From a virus (lineage: Duplodnaviria; Heunggongvirae; Uroviricota; Caudoviricetes): a DNA stretch of 64,000 bases. The stretch's first letter is position 1; each line of letters begins with the position of its first letter. The stretch lies in the IMG/VR virus record IMGVR_UViG_3300032038_000051, positions 12,740 to 76,739 of that record; one strand, 5' to 3'. Below are positions 10,783-44,930 of this stretch, in pieces. A program made the position numbers and the translations under genes. Below the pieces are notes generated by a model. It made no database searches. It worked only from the letters and a program-made list of their open reading frames with translations, and was not told the origin of the DNA.

Positions 10783-11257
10783 GCAACTTCTACGAGCACG
10801 GAAAGGCCGCGATGACGTCCGAAAGGGACGACTGGGAGACGCCGCAGCGGCTATTCGACGAGCTGGACGCGATCCACCACTTCACGCTGGACCCGTTCTC
10901 GAACGGCGCAAACGCGAAGTGCGCCGAGTTCTTCACCAAGGAGACCGACGCGCTCGAACAGGACTGGGGGGGGGTCGCTTCTTTGCGAACCCGCCATACG
11001 GTCGCAGGATGGCGGACTTCGTCCGCAAGTGCGCGGAGGAGTCGGCACGCGCCAGCGGCGTGCTCCTCGTCCCCGCGAGGACGGACACCGCGTGGTTCTG
11101 GGACTGGGTCGTCCCGTACGCGAGCGTCAGGTTCCTTCGCGGCAGGCTCAAGTTCGAGGTCGGCGGGGTGCCGGGGCAGTCTGCGCCGTTCCCGTCGATG
11201 CTCGCGTTCTACGGCCTCGACGACCCCTTGGCGGTGAGGATACCGTGCGCATCCTAG
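10779..11257 (+). pseudogene. Dam-family (phage N6-adenine) DNA methyltransferase, frameshifted at a G9 tract (10966..10974)
   Basis: N-part MSNFYEHGKAAMTSERDDWETPQRLFDELDAIHHFTLDPFSNGANAKCAEFFTKE...DWGG in one frame; FANPPYGRRMADFVRK...LLVPARTDTAWFWDWV...RFLRGRLKF continues in another frame after GGGGGGGGG; both parts together match the phage Dam family. Confidence 0.75.
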
Positions 11258-12326: not shown

Positions 12327-13432
12327 TGCGGTTCGACATCTCCCAGACGTCGCTCGCGCGGGCCATGGCGACGGTCGGCAAGGGCGTCTCGTCGTCGGCG
12401 ACAACGTCGGTCTACGGCGGCGTCCGCATCGAGGCGCGAGACGGCGAGGTCGAGTTCCGGACCACGGACGGGCGAGTGTCCGTCTCCCACGTCGCGCCCG
12501 CGAACGTCGAGGGGCAGGGCGCCACGGTCCTCTCGTGGCACGTCCTCGATCGCGTGGTCAAGGGCATGCCCGACCGCGCCGTCGGCTTCGAGCTCGACGG
12601 GCAGAAGATGTCCGTGAGGTGCGGGAAGTCGAGGTGGAGCCTCAACGCCCTGGCCGACGGCGGGTTCCCGGACTTCCCGGAGTTCGACGTCAGGGCGTCG
12701 GTCACGCTGCCGAGGGCCACGCTCGCAGACATGGCGGGGCGCACGTGCGCGGCGGCGTCCCGCGACAGGAGCGAGTCCAACCAGGCCCTGCTCGGCATCC
12801 TGCTGACCGTCGGCGACGGGAGGCTGTCGCTCTCCGCGACCGACCGCAACCGCGCGACGGTATGCGAGACCTCGGTGCCGTGCAAGGACGAGACGTCGGT
12901 CATCATACCCGCGGACGCGCTGAGGAGCGCCCTGTCGATACCGTCGGACGCCCCGGACGTCGCCATACGCGTCGGCGACCGGCACGTCTCGCTCCGCATG
13001 GGCGGCTCGACGCTGGTGACGCCGAGGATAGTCTGGAACTACCCCAACCTCGCGCTGCTGTTCCCCAAGGGGAGCACCACCCGCATCAGGGTCGACGCCG
13101 GCGCGCTGTGCGACGCGCTCAAGAGGGTGTCCGCCGTCGCCGGCCTCGAGCGCAGGGTGACGCTCGTGGCCGAGGAGTCGCTCGCGCCGAGCATGACGCT
13201 GAGGTCGCGCTCCGTGGACGCGGGCAACTCCGTCGAGACGCTCGACGTCCAGTCGGTCGAGGGCGAGCGTCTGGAGATACACCTCAACCACGCGTACCTC
13301 AACGACGCGGCGGCGACCGTGGACGGCGAGGCGTGGCTCCTCGCCGAGGGCCCGCTGAAGCCGTTCGTCGTCAAGTCCGACGGCGACGTCTCGCAGACCT
13401 GGCTGATCATGCCGATGAGACCGGAGGCGTAG
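12308..13432 (+). CDS. dnaN: DNA polymerase III beta subunit (sliding clamp)
   Basis: About 370 aa; N-terminal SQTSLARAMATVGKG...GGVRIEARDGEVEF and C-terminal GPLKPFVVKSDGD...LIMPMR typical of DnaN. Confidence 0.8.
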   Translation: MGEVGVVRFDISQTSLARAMATVGKGVSSSATTSVYGGVRIEARDGEVEFRTTDGRVSVSHVAPANVEGQGATVLSWHVLDRVVKGMPDRAVGFELDGQKMSVRCGKSRWSLNALADGGFPDFPEFDVRASVTLPRATLADMAGRTCAAASRDRSESNQALLGILLTVGDGRLSLSATDRNRATVCETSVPCKDETSVIIPADALRSALSIPSDAPDVAIRVGDRHVSLRMGGSTLVTPRIVWNYPNLALLFPKGSTTRIRVDAGALCDALKRVSAVAGLERRVTLVAEESLAPSMTLRSRSVDAGNSVETLDVQSVEGERLEIHLNHAYLNDAAATVDGEAWLLAEGPLKPFVVKSDGDVSQTWLIMPMRPEA

Positions 13433-14203: not shown

Positions 14204-14489
14204 CGCGATATACGTGCCGTGCGACTGCGGATGCTGCGTGATCGAGGTGAGCAGGCACGACTGGGGCGACGGCGACGTCAACTACAACCTCGCCGTCCTC
14301 GACGGCAGGTACGACCACGAGGCCAACGGACTCCTCAACAGGGTCAGGCGCGCCGCGATGGCGCTGTTCGGCAGGAGGGTCTGCTTCAACGACGTGTACA
14401 TGACAGAGGAGGCGTTCGACGACCTGCTGTCGCGCATGGCTGGACTCCGGCACGGCGGGCACTTCGAGAAGACGTCCGACGGCGCCTAA
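14196..14489 (+). CDS. hypothetical Cys-rich protein
   Basis: ORF; PCDCGCC cluster. Confidence 0.45.
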   Translation: MGDAIYVPCDCGCCVIEVSRHDWGDGDVNYNLAVLDGRYDHEANGLLNRVRRAAMALFGRRVCFNDVYMTEEAFDDLLSRMAGLRHGGHFEKTSDGA

Positions 14490-14517
14490 GACGGACTTTC
14501 GAGAACGGAGACGAAGA

Positions 14518-14727
14518 ATGACGCAAGAAGAGCTCGACGCCAGGTTCGATTACCACCCGCCGAAGGGCTGCCAGCCCGCCAAGTACAGCCTCATCAGGGA
14601 CGAGGCCAAGGATTTTGCAAGAAAGGTAGACGCCTTTTGCCCGGAAGGCCGCGAGAAGTCGCTGGCCCTCACGAACATCGAGCAGGCGGTCATGTGGGCC
14701 AACGCCGCGATAGCAAGGAACGAGTAA
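14518..14727 (+). CDS. hypothetical protein
   Basis: ORF with RBS. Confidence 0.5.
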   Translation: MTQEELDARFDYHPPKGCQPAKYSLIRDEAKDFARKVDAFCPEGREKSLALTNIEQAVMWANAAIARNE

Positions 14728-14737
14728 GGAGAACCAA

Positions 14738-15301
14738 ATGAAGACGATGTATCCGACAATCCCCACCGTGCTTGGCGAAGGCGCGTCCATGCCGACCTAC
14801 GCGCACGAGGGCGACGCGGGACTCGACCTCTGCGCGACGGAGGACGTCGCGCTGTGCCCCGGCGAGTACAGGATGATTGGCAGCGGCGTGAGCATGGCGA
14901 TTCCCGAGGGTTTCGTCGGGCTGGTCGTGCCAAGAAGCGGGTTGGGCTGCAAAGGGCTGGTGATGAAGCACGACCTCGGTGTGATCGACTCGGGGTACCG
15001 CGGCGAGATAAAGGTGCCGCTGTACAACAACAACCCGCAGCTCGTCATTGCGGAGAGATACCCGAAGGCCAAGGCCCGGTTCCCGAGGGCGTACAAATGG
15101 CTGTGCGACAGGATGGGCGGCGAGCCGTTCAGCCTGGTCCCCAACGAGGAGGTCATATTCGTCCGCAAGGGCGACCGCGTCGCACAGTTGCTCATCGTCC
15201 CTGTCGCTCAGGCGACGTTCGTCCAGGTTGACACGCTCGACGAGACGGAGCGCGGAGACGGTTCCTTTGGGTCAAGCGGAGTGCAAAGCAGGAGGCTTTA
15301 A
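14738..15301 (+). CDS. dut: dUTP diphosphatase (trimeric dUTPase) with an internal insertion
   Basis: All five dUTPase motifs present (AGLDL, PRSGLG, GVIDSGYRGEI, GDRVAQL, RGDGSFGSSG), plus ~25-30 extra residues between motifs III and IV. Confidence 0.85.
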   Translation: MKTMYPTIPTVLGEGASMPTYAHEGDAGLDLCATEDVALCPGEYRMIGSGVSMAIPEGFVGLVVPRSGLGCKGLVMKHDLGVIDSGYRGEIKVPLYNNNPQLVIAERYPKAKARFPRAYKWLCDRMGGEPFSLVPNEEVIFVRKGDRVAQLLIVPVAQATFVQVDTLDETERGDGSFGSSGVQSRRL

Positions 15302-15383
15302 CAATGACTCGAAATAAAGCTGGAAAAGGCCCATTTGAAAACCAATTGCCTGCAAAGCCAATCGGAAGCTCCGGGGTGAGGCT

Positions 15384-15893
15384 GTGATGACGTACGACCA
15401 GATCGACGAGGCGTCCGACCTCTGGAAGCAGGGCGTCAGCGCCAAGAGAATATCTCAGACCGTCGGCTGCGACGTTGACGAGCTGTGCTACGTGGCGCAG
15501 AGTGACCGCGACCGCTTCCCGCTCCGCAGGGGCCGCCTCAGCCAGGACGCCGTCGAGCTGATTCGGGAGATGCGTGACGCCGGCATGACGATCAGGGCCA
15601 TCGCCGACAAGGTTGGCACCACCACGACGACGGTTTGCCGAAGGCTCAACGAGACACGACGGGACGACTGCGGAAACGCCCCGATCGACCGCCTCAGAAG
15701 CATGCTCGACGACGTCGGCGCTAGGTACTCGACGATCGGCAAGACCCTGTCCGTGAAGCACGACGGCCTCACGTGGCACGTGCGGTCACGGAGCACTGAC
15801 GGAGGACTGCATGTCGAGTGCATATCGGCGATGGAGCCGGAGCGTGCGCTCATGGCGATGGGGCTGCTCGACGGGACGGGAGGTGCGGAATGA
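15384..15893 (+). CDS. HTH domain protein
   Basis: Two HTH-like segments (VSAKRISQTVGCDVDEL; MTIRAIADKVGTTTTTVCRRL). Confidence 0.5.
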   Translation: MMTYDQIDEASDLWKQGVSAKRISQTVGCDVDELCYVAQSDRDRFPLRRGRLSQDAVELIREMRDAGMTIRAIADKVGTTTTTVCRRLNETRRDDCGNAPIDRLRSMLDDVGARYSTIGKTLSVKHDGLTWHVRSRSTDGGLHVECISAMEPERALMAMGLLDGTGGAE

Positions 15894-16055
15894 AGGACCT
15901 GTTGGTCGCGATATTCGGGATCGTTCTCGTCTTCGCCTTCGTCCTGCTCGTCGTCATGTCGCTCCTGAACTTCGGCACGGTGGCCGGGTGCCACTGCGCG
16001 CTGCTGGCGCTGGTCATGCTGGGCATATGCTCCATACGTCTATAGGGAGCCGGCC

Positions 16056-16253
16056 ATGAACCTCGACAGGACGCTCAAGTACCTGCGCCGCGTTGCGCTC
16101 GTCGGCGCGCTCGTCGCATCCGCGGCCTCGCTCGTCAAGGTAGCGCTGCATGACGTCGAGTCGGCCCAGATCTACATGCTGGTCGCCGTGAACGCCTACC
16201 TCATCAGCCAGATGCTCGATGCCAATGCGCTGCGGCGCGACGGGGGGAGATGA
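16056..16253 (+). CDS. hypothetical small membrane protein
   Basis: Hydrophobic ORF. Confidence 0.4.
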   Translation: MNLDRTLKYLRRVALVGALVASAASLVKVALHDVESAQIYMLVAVNAYLISQMLDANALRRDGGR

Positions 16254-16257
16254 GTCC

Positions 16258-16656
16258 ATGGACGGAAAGGACACCGTCAGCGGCCTGCTCGAAAAGCGTG
16301 GCGTCAGATGGTGGTCAGAAAACGACCTCGCCGCGCGCTTTGAGGGCACGTGCTGGGAGTCCGGCGGCCTGACGTGGGGATACGTCTCGAACGGCTGCCT
16401 CTCCCATCTTGCGGCATGCGAGAGCGACGTGACGCCGGAGCAGGCGGTCGTCGCGACGGTCGGCGCGAGAACGTGCAAGGACTTGGGTGGCACGGACGCG
16501 AACGGCAGTCCCGTGTTCAACTGCTCCGAGTGCGGGTGCGTGCTCTCGCTGTATGACGCTGAGGGCGCGAACACCCTGTGCACGAGCTTCATATTCGACT
16601 ACCCGCGCTTCTGCCCGGAATGCGGCGCGAGAGTCGAGGATGGTGAGGGCGTATGA
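16258..16656 (+). CDS. zinc-ribbon protein
   Basis: NCSECG...FCPECGARVEDGEGV C-terminal ribbon. Confidence 0.5.
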   Translation: MDGKDTVSGLLEKRGVRWWSENDLAARFEGTCWESGGLTWGYVSNGCLSHLAACESDVTPEQAVVATVGARTCKDLGGTDANGSPVFNCSECGCVLSLYDAEGANTLCTSFIFDYPRFCPECGARVEDGEGV

Positions 16657-16832
16657 GCTGCGTGTGGACCGACGAGCAGCGCAAGCGGCTCGTCGAGTGC
16701 GCGTTCCACATGACGCAAATCACCGAACACAACTTCACGGAATGCACATACGAGCTCCGCAGCCTCAAGAAGAGGATCGAGAGGGGCGAGGTCAACGACG
16801 ACGGCACCACGAGGCCGAAGCGACGAAAGTGA
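16653..16832 (+). CDS. hypothetical small protein (59 aa)
   Basis: ATGA-coupled ORF. Confidence 0.35.
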   Translation: MSCVWTDEQRKRLVECAFHMTQITEHNFTECTYELRSLKKRIERGEVNDDGTTRPKRRK

Positions 16833-16843
16833 GCGTGTGGACG

Positions 16844-17002
16844 ATGGTACTGTTTGTGATCCTGGAAATGGCGACGTGCGCCATTGACATGTACTGCCTG
16901 GCGAACTACCTCGCGGAAGACGTCGGCTGGATGTCCTTTCTGTGGCTCGTCGCCGCATGCATGCTGACCGCATTGATGCTAGTTATGCGCAACTGCTGGT
17001 AA
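16844..17002 (+). CDS. small hydrophobic peptide
   Basis: Two predicted TM segments. Confidence 0.3.
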   Translation: MVLFVILEMATCAIDMYCLANYLAEDVGWMSFLWLVAACMLTALMLVMRNCW

Positions 17003-17018
17003 AGAAGGGTGATGTGAT

Positions 17019-17384
17019 ATGAGCAAGACAGAGTTCCAAGTACTCGATACGATTCACCCCAAGAACATCTACCCACTCATCAACATCACGCCCGTGCTAT
17101 GGCATCGCGGCGACTTCTGCGGCATCGATCGCATAGAAGTCCGCTGGCCCGACGAGCTGCGACTGTTCTACGACGAGCAGTCCTTCGAGCAGATGAAGGC
17201 CAGGCTCGAGGAGCACGGGGGCGCGTCCTCGTACGAGGATGGCTACTCGGACGGCTTCGACAAGGGGGAGGAGGCCGTCGTCCAGCAGATTGACGCCATC
17301 ATCGACGAGCACTGGTCGAGCGACGAGGCGGTGAAGAGCATACGCCGTTGGATCGCCGACTTCTGGAAGGAGCGCGAATCATGA
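17019..17384 (+). CDS. hypothetical protein
   Basis: ORF with RBS. Confidence 0.55.
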   Translation: MSKTEFQVLDTIHPKNIYPLINITPVLWHRGDFCGIDRIEVRWPDELRLFYDEQSFEQMKARLEEHGGASSYEDGYSDGFDKGEEAVVQQIDAIIDEHWSSDEAVKSIRRWIADFWKERES

Positions 17385-17815
17385 GCGAAGAGACGAACGG
17401 GAGCGGGAGGTATTGCGCCGAATCCCAGAGGGTCGGGAATGCCCTGCTTGAGTACCGCGACAACCCGCCATGCAACGAAGTGGGTGGAACGCTTTGCGGA
17501 CAATGGTACGTGCCCGGTGACGTCATGGCGATAATCATGGAGCCGAAGACCGTCTTCACGACGGCGGACTACCTCACGCGCCTCGCCCACCTGATGGGGG
17601 TGGACGACGGAGCGGGCACGGAACTCAAGCCCTGCCCGTTCTGCGGAAGCGATGCCGAGATGGACACCTTGATGATAGAGCCTTGCTGGTGGACTGCGGA
17701 AGTCCGTTGCAAGGGAATACGCGAAAACAAGTGCTCGGCGCTCATGGTATGCGGAGGAGACACCGAGAAGGAGGCGGTCGAGGCCGTCACGAAGGCTTGG
17801 AACAGACGGGCTTAG
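17381..17815 (+). CDS. Lar-family restriction-alleviation-like protein (C-terminal Lar domain)
   Basis: C-terminal LKPCPFCGSD...C..C...EAVEAVTKAWNRRA matches the Lar family zinc-ribbon/WNRR signature. Confidence 0.55.
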   Translation: MSEETNGSGRYCAESQRVGNALLEYRDNPPCNEVGGTLCGQWYVPGDVMAIIMEPKTVFTTADYLTRLAHLMGVDDGAGTELKPCPFCGSDAEMDTLMIEPCWWTAEVRCKGIRENKCSALMVCGGDTEKEAVEAVTKAWNRRA

Positions 17816-17830
17816 AAAGGTGTGTGAGCG

Positions 17831-18094
17831 ATGACGAACGGCAAGTACTACGTCGAACCCCAATACTGGGGGCATTGGCCCAAGACGCTGGTCGTGCACC
17901 ACAAGGCGTCCGGCGGAGTCGACGAGACGCGCAAGTACGCCCATGTCGGCTCGTGCGAGGTGACGCGCAACCATCCCGACACAAGCTGCTTCATGTGGCA
18001 ATGCTCCGAGTGCGGCGAGCACTTCAGCACGTGCCAGCAGCCCAAGCACTGTCCGTCGTGTGGGCGGGCGGTGTCGCGCGTGGAGGAACGTTGA
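17831..18094 (+). CDS. zinc-ribbon protein
   Basis: CSECGEHF...HCPSCGRAV. Confidence 0.5.
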   Translation: MTNGKYYVEPQYWGHWPKTLVVHHKASGGVDETRKYAHVGSCEVTRNHPDTSCFMWQCSECGEHFSTCQQPKHCPSCGRAVSRVEER

Positions 18095-18135
18095 GGCGAC
18101 CGCAGGCTCGGACGGACGCTGACGGAGGGAGAGGA

Positions 18136-18828
18136 ATGAGCAAGGACGACTACCCGGAGCCGACGACGGTCCGGGATTTGTGGCTTATGGGCGAGACGTG
18201 CGGGAAGTACCGCAACTGCGTCGAGTACGAGCGCGCCGATGGGGTGCCCGACAACGGCATCGACTACCGCGAGGGCATGGTGGTGTGCCACACGATGAGG
18301 GTCCTGCCCGACGCGTACGCCGACACCGTCGAGGTCGTCGTGCAGAGGGTCGAGGTCGACCACACGTACCCCGACGGCTCCTACTGCCCGCGCGAGGTGA
18401 CGCTGTGGAGGAGGACGTACGGCGGCATCAAGGGGTTCCGCGAGTCGCCGTTCTGGGGCCTGACGTTGGCGTCGTGGGGCACCGCGCGGGCGTCGTGGGA
18501 CACGCGCAAGCTCGACGACCATGACGTCGGCTTCGACGGCGACCGTGGCGGCCTATGGCTCCACTACCTCAAGCACCGCACGGACTGGCTCGGGAACGAC
18601 AAGCTCAGCGGCGAGATAGGGTCGCTCTGCTTCTCGGCACGGCAGGACGGGAGCGTGGCTCTGGCGATCGACGGCAACGAGGTGTTCGACGGCCTCGTGC
18701 AGGACCTGGCGACGGCGCTCGAGGAGTACTTGGAGATGAAGGAGAAGCTGGAAACGCTAAAGGAGCACGGGGTCGACCTCGACGAGGGGACCCTGTCCAT
18801 AAGGCTGTGGGGCGACGGCGATGAGTAG
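18136..18828 (+). CDS. hypothetical protein (230 aa)
   Basis: ORF with GAGGGAGAGG RBS. Confidence 0.55.
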   Translation: MSKDDYPEPTTVRDLWLMGETCGKYRNCVEYERADGVPDNGIDYREGMVVCHTMRVLPDAYADTVEVVVQRVEVDHTYPDGSYCPREVTLWRRTYGGIKGFRESPFWGLTLASWGTARASWDTRKLDDHDVGFDGDRGGLWLHYLKHRTDWLGNDKLSGEIGSLCFSARQDGSVALAIDGNEVFDGLVQDLATALEEYLEMKEKLETLKEHGVDLDEGTLSIRLWGDGDE

Positions 18829-19048
18829 CGGCGCGAGCGTGTCCAGGATGGTGCGCGAGTACCTCGCGAGGAACGGCTACGACGGGCTGTGCAACGCCGT
18901 CGCCGAGTGCGGGTGCACCCTGGACGACCTCTTCCCGTGCTCGGGGCCCAACGTCAAGGAGTGCCGCGCGGCCCACAAGTCCGACTGCATGACGTACGTG
19001 GGAGAGGGCCTCTGCGGCCCCGACCACGCCGAAGGAGATGGTGACTAA
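18821..19048 (+). CDS. hypothetical Cys-rich protein
   Basis: ORF. Confidence 0.45.
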   Translation: MSSGASVSRMVREYLARNGYDGLCNAVAECGCTLDDLFPCSGPNVKECRAAHKSDCMTYVGEGLCGPDHAEGDGD

Positions 19049-19220
19049 TGAATCCACCGATGATGTCGTACTCGACGATGCTGAGCCTAATGAGCATCAT
19101 GCGCGGGGGCGGGACGACGCCCGTTGACTACGCCCGTACGCACAGGAGCAAGAAGCACAAGGCGCGGCGAGGGCACCGGAACCGAAGGCACTACATAAGG
19201 TCGATGGGGAGCCGGTAGCG

Positions 19221-19547
19221 ATGGGCGACATGGCGAACTGCCCGAATTGCGGGGCAGTCGTCCATGACTGCGTCTGCGAGTATTGCGGCACGGTCTTTCC
19301 GAGCTCATTGAGCAGCTTTTGTGGCAAGCCGTGCGTATTGGTCACGATACGCGACGGCAACCTGTTCGCCATGGCCCTTGATGTTCATGCCATAGAGCGA
19401 AACCCACAGACGGATTACTTCACGGACAACATGGAACTCATATGCGTCAACCGTTCGAACGAGGTGACCGTGACGGGGACGTTGGGTGACACGCAGGCGT
19501 TGTTTCGCATCGCGCACGACATAAAGAAACGTTTGGAGGATGCATGA
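19221..19547 (+). CDS. zinc-ribbon protein
   Basis: CPNCG...CEYCG N-terminal ribbon. Confidence 0.5.
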   Translation: MGDMANCPNCGAVVHDCVCEYCGTVFPSSLSSFCGKPCVLVTIRDGNLFAMALDVHAIERNPQTDYFTDNMELICVNRSNEVTVTGTLGDTQALFRIAHDIKKRLEDA

Positions 19548-19646
19548 GCGAACAAACGGCAACCTACCGTCTCCGCGGGCTGTGCTACGCGGACGCCATG
19601 ACAATCGAGGAGTGCATCGGGGCTTACTTCTCAGGGAGGAAGAGGA

Positions 19647-19874
19647 ATGGATAGGGAACCCGCGCTAAAGTCCTGCCCATTCTGCAAAAGCATCGCGGAG
19701 TACGTGATGAACAGCCCGAAGGGTCACCCAACGAGGTGGGCGGCGGCATGCTCGAACACCAGCAACGTGGCAAGAGACGATGGCGACGTCATGTGCAGAT
19801 GCAGGACGCCGTTCGTGAGGAGCAAAGAGCATGCGGCGCAAATCTGGAACAGGAGGGCAGGGGATGAAGGCTAA
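19647..19874 (+). CDS. Lar-family restriction-alleviation protein
   Basis: 75 aa; SCPFCKS...C.C...EHAAQIWNRRA Lar family signature. Confidence 0.6.
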   Translation: MDREPALKSCPFCKSIAEYVMNSPKGHPTRWAAACSNTSNVARDDGDVMCRCRTPFVRSKEHAAQIWNRRAGDEG

Positions 19875-20256
19875 GGAAGAGCAGTTCCCGTTCATACCGG
19901 AGGTGCGCCTTTTCCACGACAAGAAGAAGTGCAGGCGGTTTATGAGGAAGCACTTCGACGGTGAGCGGGAGTTCATGGGCGACGAATTCGCCCAGACGTG
20001 GTACGAGCGCGGCGTGGCCGTGATCCTGTTCCCGTTCGACCGCGATTGGCACGGCGACGCGGCGCTGCTGTGCCACGAGGCGTATCACGCAATCATGCGG
20101 CACTTCGAGTACCTCGGCGAGGACGCGCCGGGAGAGGAGTTCGTCGCCTACGGCATCCAGTCGATAAGCAAGTCCCTGTTCGAGGCCCATGAGAAGTGGA
20201 AGGCGAAGAGGAGAAGGACGAATCTGAGAGGGAGGAAATACCAACATGCTGATTAA
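19864..20256 (+). CDS. small HExxH-motif protein (putative metallopeptidase-like)
   Basis: LLCHEAYHAIM contains an HExxH zinc-binding motif. Confidence 0.45.
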   Translation: MKAKEEQFPFIPEVRLFHDKKKCRRFMRKHFDGEREFMGDEFAQTWYERGVAVILFPFDRDWHGDAALLCHEAYHAIMRHFEYLGEDAPGEEFVAYGIQSISKSLFEAHEKWKAKRRRTNLRGRKYQHAD

Positions 20257-28003: not shown

Positions 28004-28335
28004 GGACTTCGCAGGAGGATGGGCTGCTGCACAAGTACAGGCCGCTCCCCGAGGACGGTCCGCGCCACAAGAAGAGGACGAGGAAGGCCCACGTGAGGAG
28101 CGACCACAAGCACGCGTACGAGACGGTGTGCGTCGACTCGGGCGACTGGGTGTACGCGTGCGGCGAGCGGTACCACGTCTACCACACGGCGACGAGGTGC
28201 TCCGTGTGCGGAAGGATAGGGGACGTTACGATGCGCGACCTGCGCGAGGTTCCCGAGGACATGCCGCTTTACGAGGTCGACGGCATCAACGACCTGCTCG
28301 CAAAGACCCTGCCCGACGAGAGGAGGGCGTCATGA
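28000..28335 (+). CDS. zinc-ribbon protein
   Basis: CVDSGDWVYACGERYH...RCSVCGRIG. Confidence 0.5.
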   Translation: MRTSQEDGLLHKYRPLPEDGPRHKKRTRKAHVRSDHKHAYETVCVDSGDWVYACGERYHVYHTATRCSVCGRIGDVTMRDLREVPEDMPLYEVDGINDLLAKTLPDERRAS

Positions 28336-28994
28336 GCACGGGCTATGCCAGCCAGCTAACCAAGAAGTCGTTCCTTGCGGGCGCCCTGATATCGGTCGGG
28401 GCGCTCTTCTCGTTGGCGGCGAGGGAGTACGGGCCGGTGGTGCAGGGACTCTGCTTCGGCGTCGGCCTCACCGGAGTCATGTGGACCCAGTCGAGCCTGT
28501 TCACCGGCAGGGTGCTTGACTCGGGTGCGGTCATGCGCGCGGAGCCCGGCCACGAGCGGGCGACGGCGCTCGACAGGCTCGTCGGCGAGCTTACCGTCGC
28601 GTGGGCGCTCAACCTGCTTGGCGCCGTGGTCGTCGCCCTTCATGCGAGAGCGATGCACTTCGACGCGTCCGCCGTCGCGACGGCCAAGGCGGCGATGCCG
28701 TGGCGCGAGCTGGTCATACGCGCCATCTTCTGCAACGTCATGGTATGTCTGGCCGTGTTCGCGAACCGCCGCGCCAACGGATCGCCATTGGCGGCGCCCG
28801 TCATATGCGCGCTGCCGGTCGCCTGCTTCGTCGCGTGCGGGTTCGAGCACTGCGTGGCCGACATGCTGTACATGCCGCTCGGCTTTATGCAGGGGGCCGT
28901 CACCCCAATGGACTGCGTCCGCGTCATCGGACTCGCGACAGTCGGCAACGTCATGGGCGGAGTCGCGTTCGCATGGCTCGCGGAGGCGCGCTGA
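28332..28994 (+). CDS. formate/nitrite transporter (FNT) family channel protein, short form (~220 aa)
   Basis: SSLFTGR (FNT signature-1-like LFTG), IFCNVMVCLAV (signature 2 [GA]xxCN[LIVMFYW]2VC[LV]A), ACGFEHCVADMLYMP (FEH-IANM region); six hydrophobic segments. Confidence 0.7.
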   Translation: MSTGYASQLTKKSFLAGALISVGALFSLAAREYGPVVQGLCFGVGLTGVMWTQSSLFTGRVLDSGAVMRAEPGHERATALDRLVGELTVAWALNLLGAVVVALHARAMHFDASAVATAKAAMPWRELVIRAIFCNVMVCLAVFANRRANGSPLAAPVICALPVACFVACGFEHCVADMLYMPLGFMQGAVTPMDCVRVIGLATVGNVMGGVAFAWLAEAR

Positions 28995-30869: not shown

Positions 30870-31618
30870 GAGACAACATCGAGTTCATAGGCCAGTCCGT
30901 CGAGTACGTCGGCGGCTACGGCGGGGACGACACCATCGAGAGCGCCGCGAGGACGTGCACCCAGACGGTCGGGAGGAAGTCTGCGTCCGACTTCGTCAGG
31001 GGCCTCGTCAGGAGAGGACACATGTCCCCCACCGAGTTCGGTTTCGCCGACTTCCTCATCGAGGTCGACCGGGCCATCCAGCAGGAGCTCACGAGGCACA
31101 GACACTTCTCGTTCAACATCGAGAGCACCCGTTGGATTAACTACCTGAAAAAGCCGGTGCGCTTCGTCACGAAGCCCGCGAAGGGATGGGACGTGCCCGA
31201 CGAGGCGGTCGAGCTGCTCGAGCGGTGGTGCGAGCTGTCCGTGCTGGTGTACGAGGCGCTGCTCGCACTGCACGCCGACAGGGACTACGCCAGGAAGGCG
31301 TGGCCGCTCGCGCTGGCGTCCAACGTGAGGATGGCCGGCAACAGCCGCGCGTGGTTCGAGATGATCGCCAAGCGGATAGTCGGGGCCGCGCACCCGGAGG
31401 CGCGCGAGGTGGCGGTCGAGTGCGCTCGGGAGCTTGGAGGGCGGTTCGTCGGGCTGTTCTCGGCGAAGGCCGGCGGAAGATACAGGCCGAGGCAGCATAC
31501 CGCCAGGCCGCAGGGGTCGAACCACACCGTCGTGTCCGCGAACGTCGAGCTGTGGGACGACGACCCGCCGGCGTCGATCGAGCTCGGAAGCCACACGTAC
31601 ACCATCGAGTCCGCGTAG
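30866..31618 (+). CDS. thyX: flavin-dependent thymidylate synthase ThyX
   Basis: ThyX motif RHRHFSFNIES (RHR-x7-S), ~250 aa, FAD-binding N-terminal region. Confidence 0.85.
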   Translation: MRDNIEFIGQSVEYVGGYGGDDTIESAARTCTQTVGRKSASDFVRGLVRRGHMSPTEFGFADFLIEVDRAIQQELTRHRHFSFNIESTRWINYLKKPVRFVTKPAKGWDVPDEAVELLERWCELSVLVYEALLALHADRDYARKAWPLALASNVRMAGNSRAWFEMIAKRIVGAAHPEAREVAVECARELGGRFVGLFSAKAGGRYRPRQHTARPQGSNHTVVSANVELWDDDPPASIELGSHTYTIESA

Positions 31619-31691
31619 TGCGGTCGCGAGACAAGCAAGCCGTTTCAACGGGCCGTCCGCAGTGGGCGGCCCTCGTTCTTGGGAGGACGAG

Positions 31692-32624
31692 ATGTTCCAA
31701 CTTGTAATAGCCGTGATCCTGCTCCTCGTTGCGCTGGCGGCGCCGTCCGTCGTGAGGAGCTACAACAGGGAGTACAAGGCCGACGCGAGCGCGAGGCCGT
31801 TCGTGGTCGGCGCGCTGGCCTTAGCTGCGGTGGCGGTCGCCACGGCGTGCGTGTACGGGCAGGACGCAGGCGAGGTCATCGTCAGGATAAACCTCGGCGG
31901 GTCTCTTGCCGGCTATACGGAAGAGGCCGGCTTCCACGTCAAGGCCCCGTGGCAGAGCACGGTGAGCTACGACGTCCGAAACAATTTAATAAACTTGTAT
32001 CGCGACGCCGAGTACTCGTACGACGGCGGAGCCGCGGAAGGTGCGTGCGTGACCGTCAACGACAGAGGAGGGGCGTCGGCCGACATCGACCTCCAGGTGG
32101 TGTACTCGCTCGACGGGGCCTCAGCCCTCAAGCTCTACGAGGACTACGGCACGCAAGAAAAATTTACGTCCGACGTAATCCTCAACGCCGTGCGCGCGAC
32201 GGCACGCGAGGTGGCCGGAGCGTATGACACGATAACATTGCTCACCAACAGAGGGGAGTTCACCAAGGGGATCCGCGACGCGCTCACCTCGCGGTGGGCC
32301 GAGCTCGGGCTGAACGTCGAGCAGGTGTCCGTTCAGGACGTCCGCTACCCCGAGTCCATCAAGGACCGCTACGCCGAGGCGCAGGCAGCCGAGGTCGCCA
32401 AGGCCAAGGCGCTGAACGAGCAGGAGACCGCCCGCGTGACTGCCGAGACGAAGAAGATTAACGCGCAGGGCGAGGCCGACGCCAACCGAATCCTCACCGA
32501 GTCCCTCACTCCCGAGGTCATTCAGCAGCACTACATCGACACGCTCGGGGAGATAGGCAACAAGGGCAACATGGTCGTGGTTCCGCAGGGCTCGACGCCC
32601 ATGGTGCAGGTCGGTGAAAAATAA
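31692..32624 (+). CDS. SPFH/band-7 (stomatin/prohibitin/HflKC-like) membrane protein
   Basis: N-terminal TM anchor, SPFH core (QVSVQDVRYPESIKDRYAEAQAAEVAKA...) and C-terminal coiled-coil. Confidence 0.75.
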   Translation: MFQLVIAVILLLVALAAPSVVRSYNREYKADASARPFVVGALALAAVAVATACVYGQDAGEVIVRINLGGSLAGYTEEAGFHVKAPWQSTVSYDVRNNLINLYRDAEYSYDGGAAEGACVTVNDRGGASADIDLQVVYSLDGASALKLYEDYGTQEKFTSDVILNAVRATAREVAGAYDTITLLTNRGEFTKGIRDALTSRWAELGLNVEQVSVQDVRYPESIKDRYAEAQAAEVAKAKALNEQETARVTAETKKINAQGEADANRILTESLTPEVIQQHYIDTLGEIGNKGNMVVVPQGSTPMVQVGEK

Positions 32625-34778: not shown

Positions 34779-34851
34779 CGGCGCGGAGCACATGAACTGT
34801 CAACGAGGGGACGGCAATCTGGCCGCCCCCTTTTTGTTGGAGGGAGAAAGA

Positions 34852-35988
34852 ATGAACGAGAACCGCAAGATGGCGACCGTGCGCAAGGTCGCCGGGACCA
34901 TGCCCATCGAGGGCGCCGACCGCATCGAGCGCGTCATGGTCGACGGGTGGGTGGTCATCGACCGCAAGGACGAGTGGCATGAGGGCGACCTCTGCGTCTA
35001 CCTCGAGCCCGACACCTTCGTCAGCAAGGACGTCGAGCCGCTGTCGTACCTCATGGCGAGGGGCACCAAGCGCATGGAGCACGACGGCGTGGAGTGCGAG
35101 GGGCATGTCCTGCGCACCATCCGGCTGCGCGGGGTCTACAGCGCCGGCCTCATTGCCAAGCCGTCCGACTTCTTCATGTCGCCGGACGAGGTTCGTGCGG
35201 CATACGAGAGCGGCGAGGCGCTCGACGAGCGCATCGGCGTCTGGGAGTATCAGAGGCAGGTCAAGTGCCCCGATGGCACCACGAGACAGGTCTCCAACCC
35301 CTACGACCAGAGCGTCGCGCCAGTCACAGACGCCCAGCGCATCCAGAACTGCGCCGACGTCTGGGACGCGCTCAAGAAGGTCGACGCGTACGCCACGGTC
35401 AAGGTCGACGGCATGAGCATGACCACGGTGCTCGACCCCCGCACCAACAGGTTGCGGCTCTTCTCGCACCACAGGGAGCTCGGCTACTCCGACGAGCCCG
35501 CCGACTCCGGCGCGTCCGACGCCACGAGGGGGCAGCGCTCCTACGACGCCGCCAAGGCGCAGGGCATCGTCGACTTCTGCCTCGGCCATCCGGGGATCAC
35601 GGTGCAGTACGAGCTGACGGGGCCAAAGATCCAGCGCGGCATCACCGGCGGGTTCAGGTGCCACGTGTTCGCCGTGTGGGACATGGCGAAGATGCGCAAG
35701 ATCCCCTACGACGAGATCGTCGAGAGCGGCTGGGACGCCATCGTGGCGTCGCACGTGAGGGTGCTCGACATGAGGGCGTCCGACTACGACACCGTGGCGG
35801 ACGCGCTGATGGCCGTCGACAAGCTGAGCGGGAACGTGGTCAAGGGCAAGCCCGACGAGGGCGTGGTCTTCCACGTGACCGGCCAAGGCTCCGCCGACGA
35901 GTACGAGTGGGCGCGCGTCAGGAACAAGCTGGGCCCGAACGCCGAGTTCAAGGTCGTGTCCCAGCGATACCTGTCGAAGGAGAAGTAG
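34852..35988 (+). CDS. ATP-dependent RNA ligase, DRB0094-like family
   Basis: N-terminal MATVRKVAGTMPIEGADRIERVMVDGWVVIDRKDEWHEGDLCVYLEPDTFV resembles the DRB0094-family start (..HPNADKLE..GW..VVKKGEF..GDL.VY.E.D); nucleotidyltransferase motif I VKVDGMSMT (KxDG). Confidence 0.7.
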   Translation: MNENRKMATVRKVAGTMPIEGADRIERVMVDGWVVIDRKDEWHEGDLCVYLEPDTFVSKDVEPLSYLMARGTKRMEHDGVECEGHVLRTIRLRGVYSAGLIAKPSDFFMSPDEVRAAYESGEALDERIGVWEYQRQVKCPDGTTRQVSNPYDQSVAPVTDAQRIQNCADVWDALKKVDAYATVKVDGMSMTTVLDPRTNRLRLFSHHRELGYSDEPADSGASDATRGQRSYDAAKAQGIVDFCLGHPGITVQYELTGPKIQRGITGGFRCHVFAVWDMAKMRKIPYDEIVESGWDAIVASHVRVLDMRASDYDTVADALMAVDKLSGNVVKGKPDEGVVFHVTGQGSADEYEWARVRNKLGPNAEFKVVSQRYLSKEK

Positions 35989-40316: not shown

Positions 40317-40407
40317 GTATTTCTGCTAGAATATGCATTGCGCCGGTGCCAAACACAGACCAAGCCCCACCGGCGCGCCCGTTCTTCACCGTCACGAAGG
40401 GACACGC

Positions 40408-40893
40408 ATGCCTGAAACCGATTTGCGAGCGCCGTGGGTAAACAAGGCCAAGGAAGTCGCCGGCCTTTTCGAGTACGACGACGAGGTCGAGGTCGAGTAC
40501 GAAGAGGAAGGCCCGACCGTCGTGCTCAATGTGGACAACCCCATCAAGGCAGAGTACTTGGGCAGGTGCATGCCCGAGGCGTACACCTTCGGCAACGTCG
40601 AGCTCGGCGTGAAGATCGTCCCGAGCAACGACGAGCCGACCATTGGGCAGATCATAAAGGCCGCGTTCATCGGCAACCCCGTGCTGTCCGACGTCGTGGT
40701 CGACCCGGAGCACGCCGCCGAGTACGCGCTCTTCCTTCCCGAGGTCTTCCAGTACGATTCCGACGACATCTCGTCCGCGTACGGCATTGCCACCAAGACG
40801 TACGAGGACGTCGCGAAGGGGGTTCTCGCCGTAGAGGCGGGGACGTTCATCTGCAGCGACGTGCTCGAGGAAGTCTTCGTCCCGCTCGACTAG
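40408..40893 (+). CDS. hypothetical acidic protein
   Basis: ORF; last CDS before the tRNA cluster. Confidence 0.55.
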   Translation: MPETDLRAPWVNKAKEVAGLFEYDDEVEVEYEEEGPTVVLNVDNPIKAEYLGRCMPEAYTFGNVELGVKIVPSNDEPTIGQIIKAAFIGNPVLSDVVVDPEHAAEYALFLPEVFQYDSDDISSAYGIATKTYEDVAKGVLAVEAGTFICSDVLEEVFVPLD

Positions 40894-40977
40894 CGTCGGG
40901 CTCCCGCCGACAGGGGCGGTGGCTTCGCAGGGCCCGAAATCTGCGTGTCGGGGAGCCTGTCCGACCCCCGACGGCAT

Positions 40978-41052
40978 CGCGGGGTAGAGTAACGGTCACT
41001 CGGCAGCCTCATGAGCTGCTACATGCCGGTTCGAGTCCGGCCCCCGCGACCA
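40978..41052 (+). tRNA. tRNA-Met (anticodon CAT), elongator-type or Ile2-like
   Basis: Cloverleaf folded by hand: acceptor CGCGGGG/CCCCGCG, D stem GAGT/ACTC, anticodon stem GCAGC/GCTGC with loop CTCATGA, T arm GCCGG-TTCGAGT-CCGGC, encoded CCA; C1-G72 paired; G at position 37 is unusual. Confidence 0.7.
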
Positions 41053-41053
41053 A

Positions 41054-41129
41054 GCCCGAGTAGCTCAGCTGGCAGAGCGGCTGCCTAGTAAGCAGCGGGT
41101 CACGGGTTCGATTCCTGTCTCGGGCTCCA
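41054..41129 (+). tRNA. tRNA-Thr (anticodon AGT)
   Basis: Acceptor GCCCGAG/CTCGGGC, D stem GCTC/GAGC, anticodon stem GCTGC/GCAGC with loop CTAGTAA, T arm ACGGG-TTCGATT-CCTGT, encoded CCA. Confidence 0.65.
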
Positions 41130-41143
41130 TGTCACACCCGTAC

Positions 41144-41231
41144 GGAGGCGTGGCAGAGCGGCAATGCAGCTCCCCGCTAAGGAGTACACGTCCGCCGACG
41201 TGCGTAGGTTCGATCCCTACCGCCTCCGCCA
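41144..41231 (+). tRNA. tRNA-Ser (anticodon GCT), type II with long variable arm
   Basis: Acceptor GGAGGCG/CGCCTCC, 3-bp D stem, anticodon stem GCTCC/GGAGT with loop CCGCTAA (C at position 33), long variable arm ACACGTCCGCCGACGTGCGT, T arm AGG(T)TCGATCC, encoded CCA. Confidence 0.65.
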
Positions 41232-41236
41232 TGAAC

Positions 41237-41310
41237 AGGCCCTTGATGTAACGGCAGCATGACGGTCTCCAAAACCGTCCGTGGGGGTTCGAGTCCCTCA
41301 GGGCCTGCCA
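41237..41310 (+). tRNA. tRNA-Trp (anticodon CCA)
   Basis: Acceptor AGGCCCT/AGGGCCT, anticodon stem ACGGT/ACCGT with loop CTCCAAA, T arm GGGGG-TTCGAGT-CCCTC, encoded CCA. Confidence 0.7.
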
Positions 41311-41450
41311 TCTTTCTCACCACACCATCAGCATCGCTGCGCCTCGTCTCCATGGCGGAGAATGGCTTCGGAACGCTGATCGACGAGATAGAGCTGGTCG
41401 AGCTGTAGGCGTACGGAATGGCGGACCGCCCACCTTATTTGGAGGATGAG

Positions 41451-43907: not shown

Positions 43908-44930
43908 TCATTTTCGCGACGCCTCGTGCGTGACGGTTACCGCGTCGGTGCCGCCGTTCACGAAGGTGGGCATCACCCACCTCAGGACGAGCTCTCGCTT
44001 CTCCGGCTCGGAGCGCGGCCCGGTCCAGTAGTGGTGCCAGTGGGCGGCCCGGACGTGCGGCCTTACGGTCCTGTCTCCCTCCGTGCCGCCTTCGCCGACG
44101 TACCTGACCTTGGCGGCCCCTATCGCCCTCCCGACGCGCCTGCCGACCGCGTGGATGGTGGACTCGCAGCGCCCCTTGCGCCTCGACTTGCCCGACGGGC
44201 GGTACTCCACCTCCTGGTCGCTGTTGTCGGCGACCACGTACAGCAGGTGGCTCAGCACCTGGTTGTAGTGCTCGCGCAGCATGCGCTCGTAGTCCCTCGC
44301 GAACGTCACGTAGGCGTCGCGCGACCCGTTCACGCGCCTCGCCTCCGCCAGGTCGAACTCCATCGCCTCCGATATGACCTCGCCGAGCGTGTCGACGTCG
44401 AGGTTTATGGACATGACGCTCCTCGGCTGCCCGTCAACGAGCTGCATGATCGACACGCATTCGGCCCCGTCCTCGAACGCCAGGGCCTCGGCCCTTATCG
44501 TGCGGTCCGTCCACGCGAAGAACCCGCTGGTCATGGCGACGCTGCCGTCGCTCATGCTCATGGGCATCCGAGCCTCCACGAACAGGCACGGGTACGGCAG
44601 CCTCCTGAGCATCCCGACTGGCATCGAGTCGGGGAAGCTCGTCTTGAGCAGCTCGCTCGTGAGCGCCTTATCGAACCTGTACACGTGCCTCGACGACTGC
44701 CAGTTCGCCCAGAGGGACACGTCCTCGCAGAGCAGGTACGTCGGGTCGTTCGATATGCGCCACGCCCTCTCCGCGTCGCTGATCCTCCCGTTCACCTCGA
44801 CCGACCTCGCCTCTATGGCCTCCTGGCTGAACGAGAAGCACGGCCCCGTCACGCGCGCGAGCTGCGGATGCGCCTTGAGCAGCTCGCTGACGTGCCTGTC
44901 GGCCACCGTGGCCGGTCGCCTATGACTCAT
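43908..44930 (-). CDS. hypothetical protein (340 aa) with His-rich C-terminal motif
   Basis: Long ORF with balanced composition; RPHVRAAHWHHYWTG segment is a possible HxH/Tyr metal-binding motif; no family confidently recognised. Confidence 0.55.
   Translation of the reverse strand: MSHRRPATVADRHVSELLKAHPQLARVTGPCFSFSQEAIEARSVEVNGRISDAERAWRISNDPTYLLCEDVSLWANWQSSRHVYRFDKALTSELLKTSFPDSMPVGMLRRLPYPCLFVEARMPMSMSDGSVAMTSGFFAWTDRTIRAEALAFEDGAECVSIMQLVDGQPRSVMSINLDVDTLGEVISEAMEFDLAEARRVNGSRDAYVTFARDYERMLREHYNQVLSHLLYVVADNSDQEVEYRPSGKSRRKGRCESTIHAVGRRVGRAIGAAKVRYVGEGGTEGDRTVRPHVRAAHWHHYWTGPRSEPEKRELVLRWVMPTFVNGGTDAVTVTHEASRK

Follow-up and report, generated by a model that had tools for sequence, protein, structure and literature searches.

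A conserved tRNA array with altered anticodon loops in an uncultured phage: a C33 tRNA-Ser, an A34 tRNA-Thr and a remodelled initiator-type tRNA-Met

We analyzed a 64-kb stretch of viral DNA (the window: 64,000 nucleotides, positions 12,740 to 76,739 of the Caudoviricetes record IMGVR_UViG_3300032038_000051 in IMG/VR) and observe that it carries an array of four tRNA genes, three of which have unusual bases at or beside the anticodon or in the acceptor stem. What appears to be new here, as judged from the sequences, is a conserved elongator tRNA-Ser with C33 that belongs to a phage-only tRNA family, together with an initiator-derived tRNA-Met that has both G72 and G37. A phage tRNA array is already known in kind, and the locus is an incremental addition rather than a new kind of system. 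Tentatively, at a little less than an even chance, we read the array as a supply of decoding capacity during depletion of host tRNAs, in which the odd bases would lower recognition by host enzymes that act on anticodon loops. ARAGORN, run on the whole window, calls exactly four tRNA genes between 40978 and 41310, all on the plus strand, and the folds were cross-checked by Infernal alignment to Rfam RF00005:

40978..41052, plus strand: tRNA-Met(CAU), ARAGORN call, Rfam 57.1 bits, CCA encoded
41054..41129, plus strand: tRNA-Thr(AGU), ARAGORN call, Rfam 64.2 bits, CCA encoded
41144..41231, plus strand: tRNA-Ser(GCU), type II with a long variable arm, ARAGORN call, Rfam 52.3 bits, CCA encoded
41237..41310, plus strand: tRNA-Trp(CCA), ARAGORN call, Rfam 56.3 bits, CCA encoded

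All four tRNAs match RF00005 at 52.3-64.2 bits against a gathering score of 29 (E values from 2e-8 to 1e-11), and the Rfam scan of the window finds no family above threshold beyond these four. Each gene encodes its own N73-CCA end, each cloverleaf is intact with an anticodon loop of 7 nt, and the two programs agree on the anticodon arms. The identity elements appear from the sequences to be of bacterial type throughout. The tRNA-Ser has the bacterial type II features (a 6-bp variable stem, G73 and the GCU anticodon), the long variable arm and G73 being established elements of recognition by seryl-tRNA synthetase (SerRS), and its anticodon stem GCUCC/GGAGU encloses the loop C32 C33 G C U A37 A38, with C33 at 41175. 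U33 ranks among the most conserved nucleotides in biology; it is present in the Met, Thr and Trp tRNAs, and tRNA-Ser alone lacks this base of the U-turn. The tRNA-Thr has the loop CUAGUAA, with A34 at 41087, and combines G1-C72, C2-G71 and U73 with G35U36. The tRNA-Met has the loop CUCAUGA, with G37 at 41013, and an acceptor stem CGCGGGG/CCCCGCG in which C1 (40978) pairs with G72 (41048), while tRNA-Trp is canonical in its loop (CUCCAAA) and has A1-U72 and G73. The motif 36-UAA-38 is present in the Thr and Ser tRNAs, where Met reads UGA, so that positions 36-39 are U-A-A-G in the former two and U-G-A-G in the latter.

A sequence-only reading of this stretch had proposed the same four tRNAs with encoded CCA, the C33 of tRNA-Ser (loop CCGCTAA), the A34 anticodon AGT of tRNA-Thr and the G37 and paired C1-G72 of tRNA-Met, and every one of these features is seen in both folds at the same positions. 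It had also named its own weak spot, a stem assignment off by one that would put U at position 33. Neither tool produces such a fold, and because Infernal and ARAGORN agree, the register of the tRNA-Ser stem is sound; a shifted register as the explanation for C33 is excluded by this agreement and by U33-bearing relatives that share the stem.

The same array with the same odd loops is found in close relatives of the window (metagenome contigs L012-L016, ~97% identical to it and from five different samples), which amount to 4-5 independent assemblies. Variable columns are about eight-fold rarer in the tRNAs than in the spacers (5/313 versus 13/103; Fisher p = 1.9e-5), and all five variable tRNA columns fall in D-, T- or variable loops. 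The tRNA-Met is identical across these contigs, and the anticodon loop of tRNA-Thr is invariant, its three variable sites lying in the D- and T-loops. C33 of tRNA-Ser is seen in L013-L016 and likewise in L017/L019, L006 and L018. Since the tRNA columns vary far less than the spacers, the alignments indicate that the tRNA genes are under purifying selection and that the three odd features are fixed and inherited. Sequencing error as the source of the odd bases is excluded by their identity in independent assemblies. Two features frame the array:

40894..40977, plus strand: leader or spacer of 84 nt upstream of the array, with 10/84 columns varying among the close relatives
41311..41313, plus strand: deletion junction where tRNA-Cys(GCA) has been lost from the window, from alignment with the close relatives and ARAGORN on L013, L015 and L016

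A scan of the 84-nt leader for promoters and terminators finds neither a sigma-70-like promoter nor an intrinsic terminator. At the other end, a fifth gene, tRNA-Cys(GCA), directly follows tRNA-Trp in L013 (1504-1577), L015 (1166-1239) and L016 (1674-1748), relative to which the window shows a clean deletion. The T-loop of this tRNA-Cys reads UGCGAGU or UGCGAAU, with G55 where U is canonical. Loss of tRNA-Cys from the ancestral array could be taken as a sign of decay, as could the tRNA-Ser of L019, which ARAGORN no longer calls. We nevertheless give next to no credence to the idea that the C33 tRNA-Ser, the G37/G72 tRNA-Met or others are decaying pseudo-tRNAs or assembly errors: all four genes score 52-64 bits with intact stems, their loops are identical in independent assemblies, the variation is confined to loops and eight-fold below that of the spacers, and the wider tRNA-Ser family shows compensatory stem changes. 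Pseudogenes are rejected on these scores, this covariation and this constraint.

The compensatory changes come from a comparison of ten members of the tRNA-Ser(GCU) family, in which 9/20 stem pairs have undergone double changes, which argues that the family members are functional molecules. Searching with the Ser anticodon arm and any base at position 33, we recover 11 IMG/VR contigs, ten with U33 and one with C33. By contrast with this phage set, 185,579 bacterial and archaeal species genomes (one representative each) hold 0 exact matches to the arm with either base at position 33, a result that bears indirectly on the other refuting case named in the sequence-only reading, identical loops in the tRNAs of the host. 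On account of this absence, the sequence evidence places tRNA-Ser in a phage-only tRNA family and not among copies of host genes, and a recent capture of a host tRNA-Ser is excluded on the same grounds. Cultured phages carry the arm as well: it occurs with U33 in the Erwinia N4-like phage Fifi067 (L038) and the Acinetobacter phage ABPH49 (L040), and a close variant, also with U33, is present in the Salmonella phage vB_SenP_UTK0001 (L039). These cultured-phage tRNAs share the D arm and anticodon arm with the window (GGCAGAGCGGUAAUGC / GCUCC-C?GCUAA-GGAGU) at 76-82% overall identity, whereas they have the canonical U33 in place of the C33 of the window lineage, L017/L019, L006 and L018. The family, with near-invariant D and anticodon arms, spans phages that differ widely in host and in GC content. 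From its sequences, the tRNA-Ser(GCU) lineage appears to circulate among phages.

With respect to how unusual C33 is, U33 has been described as almost invariant, and C33 is known mostly in the initiator tRNAs of eukaryotes (PMC5041475). We sampled 259 distinct phage tRNAs from the loci fetched here, three cultured actinophages included, and observe that every non-U33 tRNA among them has C33 preceded by C32. When the Ser copies found through the search with the C33 arm are left aside, C33 is present in ~6/245 phage tRNAs (2.4%), the carriers being Val-UAC (in two related contigs), Ala-UGC, Ser-UGA, Tyr-GUA and Leu-GAG (in Microbacterium phage Cece). Its occurrence in several isotypes and phages means that C33 is rare but recurrent, and not unique to the window. 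A second near-universal position is also variable in this material, T-loops of the form UGC, with G55 where U55 or pseudouridine is universal, being found in 11/271 distinct phage tRNAs from the fetched loci. These cluster in L006, L009/L010, L017, L020-L022 and the tRNA-Cys of the close relatives, and several of these contigs also carry C33.

Besides Arg-ACG tRNAs, encoded A34 is seen in Thr-AGU and Ser-AGA tRNAs of two unrelated IMG/VR contigs (L002/L010). The loop of the window tRNA-Thr is CUAGUAA, as against CUACGAA or CUACGGA in the sampled Arg-ACG tRNAs, and thus departs from the U33-A34-C35-G36 sequence associated with the deaminase TadA, the E. coli form of which is highly specific (PMC11066159). 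Because of this unlike loop and this specificity, A34 of tRNA-Thr probably stays unmodified, with no inosine formed. A close parallel is the tRNA-Thr(AGU) of Mycoplasma, which also has an encoded A34 and, when unmodified, reads ACU, ACC and ACG in vitro (PMC11066159). It belongs to a minimal tRNA set, however, whereas the window gene is an accessory one in a GC-rich phage dominated by ACG and ACC.

Among E. coli tRNAs, the best full-length match to tRNA-Met is metY, which lies between argG and rimP and encodes an initiator. As in bacterial initiator tRNA-fMet of the metY type, the anticodon is CAU, the 5' acceptor strand is CGCGGGG (7/7), and G2-C71, C3-G70, A73 and A11:U24 are all present; most of the T arm is common to both as well. 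By contrast, metY has a C1xA72 mismatch where the window tRNA has a Watson-Crick C1-G72 pair, and A37 where the window tRNA has G37. The three consecutive G-C pairs 29-31:39-41 of initiators are also absent, the anticodon stem being GCAGC/GCUGC (G27-C43, C28-G42, A29-U41, G30-C40, C31-G39). Homologues of this tRNA-Met in L017 and L021 have an initiator-like C1xC72 mismatch together with A37. Taken together, the sequences identify tRNA-Met as a remodelled initiator-type tRNA. Seong and RajBhandary in 1987 and Varshney et al. in 1991 are said to have found that E. coli tRNA-fMet with C1:G72 is a poor substrate of the formylase and can take part in elongation, and on the basis of this E. coli genetics we read the window tRNA-Met as now mainly or partly an elongator.

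G37 following U36 is seen only in the window lineage among 20 distinct CAU tRNAs sampled. The motif 36-UAA-38 is a strict signature of tRNAs that decode ANN codons and is needed for N6-threonylcarbamoyladenosine at position 37 (t6A37) (PMC13276492); this being a strict requirement, G37 would rule out t6A37 in tRNA-Met. We also considered that the CAU gene might be a tRNA-Ile2, with C34 converted to lysidine, that serves heavily used AUA codons, since ATA makes up 31-32% of Ile codons at 63% GC and the window has no other AUA decoder. This we hold to be very improbable. The body of the tRNA is initiator-like, with metY as its best full-length E. coli match, and distant relatives keep a clear initiator-type homologue with C1xC72. 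E. coli TilS reportedly uses C4-G69 and C5-G68 (work attributed to Ikeuchi et al., 2005), where the window tRNA has G4-C69 and G5-C68, a comparison tempered by the variation of TilS rules between species. G37 would moreover exclude the t6A37 that is typical of tRNA-Ile2 (PMC13276492). The tRNA-Ile2 identity is rejected on the initiator-like body.

Codon use was counted over ~19,000 codons of the predicted open reading frames (ORFs) of the window and over a high-confidence subset. ACT accounts for 3-4% of Thr codons, against 31-42% for ACC and 47-56% for ACG, which bears out the earlier claim that ACU is rare in this GC-rich background. AGC is the commonest or second commonest Ser codon (29-35%), and Trp, Cys and Met make up 1.9%, 2.4% and 2.9% of all codons, shares that are high for Cys and Trp. 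ATA (31-32% of Ile) and AGG (36% of Arg) are surprisingly frequent at this GC, and the array has no tRNA for either. Many small CxxC-rich proteins are found among the predicted ORFs; the ATA/AGG bias and these Cys-rich small proteins hint that the host may be an anaerobe whose codon preferences are unusual.

The sequence-only reading had suggested that the tRNAs could be something other than codon supplements. For Thr-AGU this stands, the rarity of ACT meaning that it is not a plain supplement, but the claim does not carry over to Ser-GCU, Trp and Met, which may be demand-driven. A supply-and-demand explanation, in which the array tops up tRNAs in heavy demand by the phage proteome or present in few copies in hosts (Met, Trp, Cys and Ser-AGY) and C33, G37 and A34 are tolerated, near-neutral quirks that play no part in evasion, is a live possibility that we nonetheless place on the improbable side. 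It accords with the heavy use of AGC, the high demand for Trp, Cys and Met and the added tRNA-Cys in the arrays of relatives, and the low-rate recurrence of C33 in many isotypes and phages, with U33 and C33 versions of the family both persisting, suits near-neutrality. Substitutions at position 33 are also reported, by Bare et al. in 1983, to be partly tolerated in translation. Overexpression of tRNAs alone can furthermore rescue phages from tRNA depletion (PMC11555353). What such a view leaves unaccounted for is that the codon matched by Thr-AGU supplies only 3-4% of Thr, that ATA and AGG, the codons most atypical of a host, receive no tRNA, that C33 is retained in lineages whose stems have been rewritten, and that G37 is unique among the 20 CAU tRNAs sampled and removes a universal motif.

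The lineages with rewritten stems come from a wider set of loci, which can be followed through the gene immediately upstream of the leader:

40333..40893, plus strand: ORF of 186 aa with no function assigned, a syntenic marker of the tRNA hot-spot, its homologues adjoining tRNA arrays

This ORF has only one homologue cluster among 5.8 billion proteins, the contigs of which are the close relatives described above. By tblastn it is 47% identical to a homologue in L020/L021 and 38% identical to one in L017, both of which adjoin tRNAs. A metagenome scan with the Ser anticodon arm in its C33 version yields three further contigs, L017, L018 and L019. The arrays of L017 and L019 read Met-Gln-Ser(-Trp), and it is in L017 that the adjoining ORF homologue (38% identity) was detected. 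Their tRNA-Ser has the acceptor stem and C33 of the window, but its variable arm and T arm differ; the L019 copy, which has an acceptor mismatch and an insertion, is missed by ARAGORN. L018 (Ga0326514_10000579) is a phage contig of 33% GC with C33 in both its Ser-GCU and its Ser-UGA tRNA. It also carries a tRNA with the amber-reading anticodon CUA, and its tRNA sites lie at 11161-11237 and 14566-14751.

The L020/L021 locus (ENA ERZ28613763 scaffold_98, 124 kb) was reached with the AcrVA2-like protein of the window (described below) as anchor. Its array is Asp-Asn-Met-Tyr-Arg-Trp-Cys, with C33 in tRNA-Tyr (loop CCGUAAA) and with G55 or C55 in the T-loops of the Trp, Cys and Met tRNAs. In this region (14448-20044), RtcB, a Ro/TROVE protein and RlaP are encoded within 5 kb of the seven tRNAs; a search for Y-RNA in L020/L021 finds no family over the Rfam threshold. 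Because lineages beside homologues of the 186-aa ORF hold different tRNA sets, the comparison marks the locus as a tRNA hot-spot in which the gene set changes from lineage to lineage, with C33 recurring.

The window itself, to judge from its gene content, is DNA of an uncultured phage that infects a bacterium. Its GC content ranges over 57-69% (~63% overall), and its genes are short and tightly packed, on the plus strand up to ~43.5 kb and on the minus strand thereafter. The predicted products include a RecE-like exonuclease, RecT, a DNA methylase, a bacterial-type beta sliding clamp, an SPFH/Band-7 protein and an RNA ligase, as well as RusA, SSB, dUTPase, an Acb2/Tad1-hairpin protein, a Lar-like protein, an HNH endonuclease and a LexA-like protein. 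An archaeal virus, at which the high use of AGG and ATA had hinted, is rejected in view of the bacterial beta clamp, RecET, the LexA-like protein and Lar, and also of the bacterial identity elements of the tRNAs. Relatedness to known phages is low. The 20 kb that surround the array have no megablast match among 50,697 phage records, blastn of the array returns generic tRNA similarity only, and protein identities to cultured phages are only 25-30%. No matches are obtained in IMG/VR scans with the two ORFs that flank the array or in searches for exact copies of two proteins, the RNA ligase and P0005, and a genome scan with RecT reveals no relatives. PADLOC on ten proteins neighbouring the array and Pfam over the window at 50-64 kb likewise give no match. 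Matches to 'Serglycin' were discarded as an artefact of the Gly-Ser linkers that joined ORFs in the query. The neighbouring genes that bear on RNA repair, defence or the phage context are the following:

34792..35988, plus strand: RNA ligase of the Rnl5 type (Naegleria/Deinococcus), PHROG 968 'RNA ligase', E = 3.9e-42
43908..44930, minus strand: AcrVA2-like protein, 2.6 kb downstream of the array, which opens the convergent minus-strand block (PF26125, PHROG 6160)
14518-14727, plus strand: Acb2/Tad1 hairpin-domain protein of 69 aa, E = 2.7e-22
17348-17815, plus strand: Lar-like restriction-alleviation domain
31434-32624, plus strand: SPFH/Band-7 membrane protein
28332-28994, plus strand: short formate/nitrite-transporter homologue of 220 aa

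The ligase gene lies ~5 kb upstream of the array. Pfam assigns its product an N-terminal OB fold (PHA02142) and a nucleotidyltransferase domain (RNA_ligase), residues 25-302 match NgrRnl (PDB 5cot) with E = 1.2e-17, and we regard it as a candidate enzyme of RNA or tRNA repair. The AcrVA2-like label derives from the precomputed PF26125 assignment and from an NCBI homologue named 'AcrVA2 family anti-CRISPR protein', while a separate Pfam search with this protein gives no match. Together with the Acb2/Tad1- and Lar-like proteins it is a candidate for a role in counter-defence, as far as domain assignments go. The transporter homologue has ~100 metagenomic homologues of 200-225 aa that are 46-64% identical to it, several of them on contigs of 60-124 kb, and cellular FocA-like proteins are only ~35% identical. 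By its sequence it looks like a member of a phage-borne family.

Under the reading that the array sustains decoding while host tRNAs are depleted and partly escapes host enzymes, it would be transcribed with the plus-strand gene block, and its tRNAs would be excised by RNase P and 3' trimming with CCA pre-encoded. They would then supply Met, Thr, Ser(AGY) and Trp decoding once host tRNAs are depleted or cleaved in infection, and the changes at or beside the anticodon would make them poor substrates for host anticodon-loop readers at a small decoding cost. C33 would alter the U33-N34 step and the base of the U-turn, A34 would give a Thr anticodon absent from every tRNA-Thr of the host, G37 would break the U36-A37-A38 signature of ANN decoders, and G72 would turn an initiator body into a tRNA usable in elongation. 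The nearby Rnl5-type ligase, and RtcB, Ro and RlaP in the relative, may act on the repair side of this conflict and so complement the tRNAs.

That altered phage tRNA loops counter host nucleases, an idea to which the sequence-only reading had appealed, is indeed found in the literature, as a prediction (PMC10264068) and as an experimental result for T5 (PMC12409363). Loop substitutions in phage tRNAs are predicted to block VapC, PrrC and colicins (PMC10264068), and T5 variants of tRNA-Lys, Thr and Asn experimentally resist AriB of the PARIS system, which reads U36-A-A-U39 and cuts between positions 40 and 41 in ANN decoders (PMC12409363). The bacterial TsaBD complex does not read position 33 (PMC13276492), and C33 therefore need not cost t6A.

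Several observations weigh against nuclease evasion in the window. The mycobacteriophage survey treats tRNA-Ser(GCU) as not targeted (PMC10264068), and abundance alone can let phage tRNAs defeat tRNA-depleting defences without resistance (PMC11555353). A simple identity matrix does not clearly unite the C33 carriers in one clade, and U33 and C33 forms coexist, so that C33 is either old or recurrent; at ~2.4% and always as C32-C33, it could just as well stem from U-to-C transitions that relaxed constraint has let pass. Demand could still account for the Ser-GCU, Trp and Met tRNAs and, in relatives, for tRNA-Cys. On the side of repair, Pfam finds no match to a Pnkp-like end-healing enzyme in the predicted ORFs of the window. 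We also know of no nuclease acting on tRNA-Ser(GCU) that depends on U33. Nuclease evasion is plausible, on circumstantial support: the deviant bases are conserved, tRNA-Ser is not a host copy, ACU is too rare to make Thr-AGU a plain supplement, G37 destroys the 36-UAA-38 motif within the stretch that AriB reads, and in this phage group RNA-repair and anti-defence genes lie near the array.

A broader proposal, which we consider unlikely, is that this uncultured phage group systematically replaces near-universal tRNA bases, that host immunity reads those features, and that the tRNA set evades it. The replacements would be U33 to C (Ser, Tyr), U55 to G or C (Cys, Trp, Ser, Met) and A37 to G (the initiator-derived tRNA), and they would leave a translation-competent set invisible to defence and backed by RNA-repair enzymes. 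If true, one would have to look for a so far undescribed type of defence against tRNAs, with the U-turn or the T-loop, not the anticodon, as the feature it recognises.

A C33 elongator tRNA-Ser that is kept through long divergence indicates that natural translation in bacteria can accept another base than U at the U-turn. If the odd bases are protective, the contrasts C33 versus U33 and G37 versus A37 offer a testable handle on tRNA-targeting defences in uncultured anaerobes, and the idea of nuclease evasion by phage tRNAs extends beyond mycobacteria and enterobacteria. If they are neutral, the ~2% of C33 in phage tRNAs gauges the relaxed constraint on accessory tRNAs.

In comparison with known systems, the window resembles mycobacteriophage cluster C1 facing VapC and T5 facing PARIS AriB in that phage cognates carry substitutions in the anticodon stem-loop. 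Of the window tRNAs, all but one are ANN decoders (three of four), the class targeted by AriB, and the window phage is, like those of the published precedents, rich in (candidate) counter-defence genes. The precedents differ in that their substitutions fall on stem or loop positions which vary between tRNAs, whereas the window changes hit the near-universal U33 and the R37 next to U36. Unlike tRNA repair of the T4 type (Pnkp plus Rnl), the ligase has no Pnkp beside it within the 64-kb window. Microbacterium phage Cece and Streptomyces phage GiJojo have 35-50 tRNAs where the window has four, at ~30% protein identity, but they encode the same ligase family inside their tRNA arrays. In Cece a Band-7-like protein borders the tRNA region, and the window encodes an SPFH/Band-7 protein too. 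The arrays of large actinophages that combine tRNAs with RNA ligase, RtcB and Ro find a further counterpart in the relative L021, which has RtcB and TROVE.

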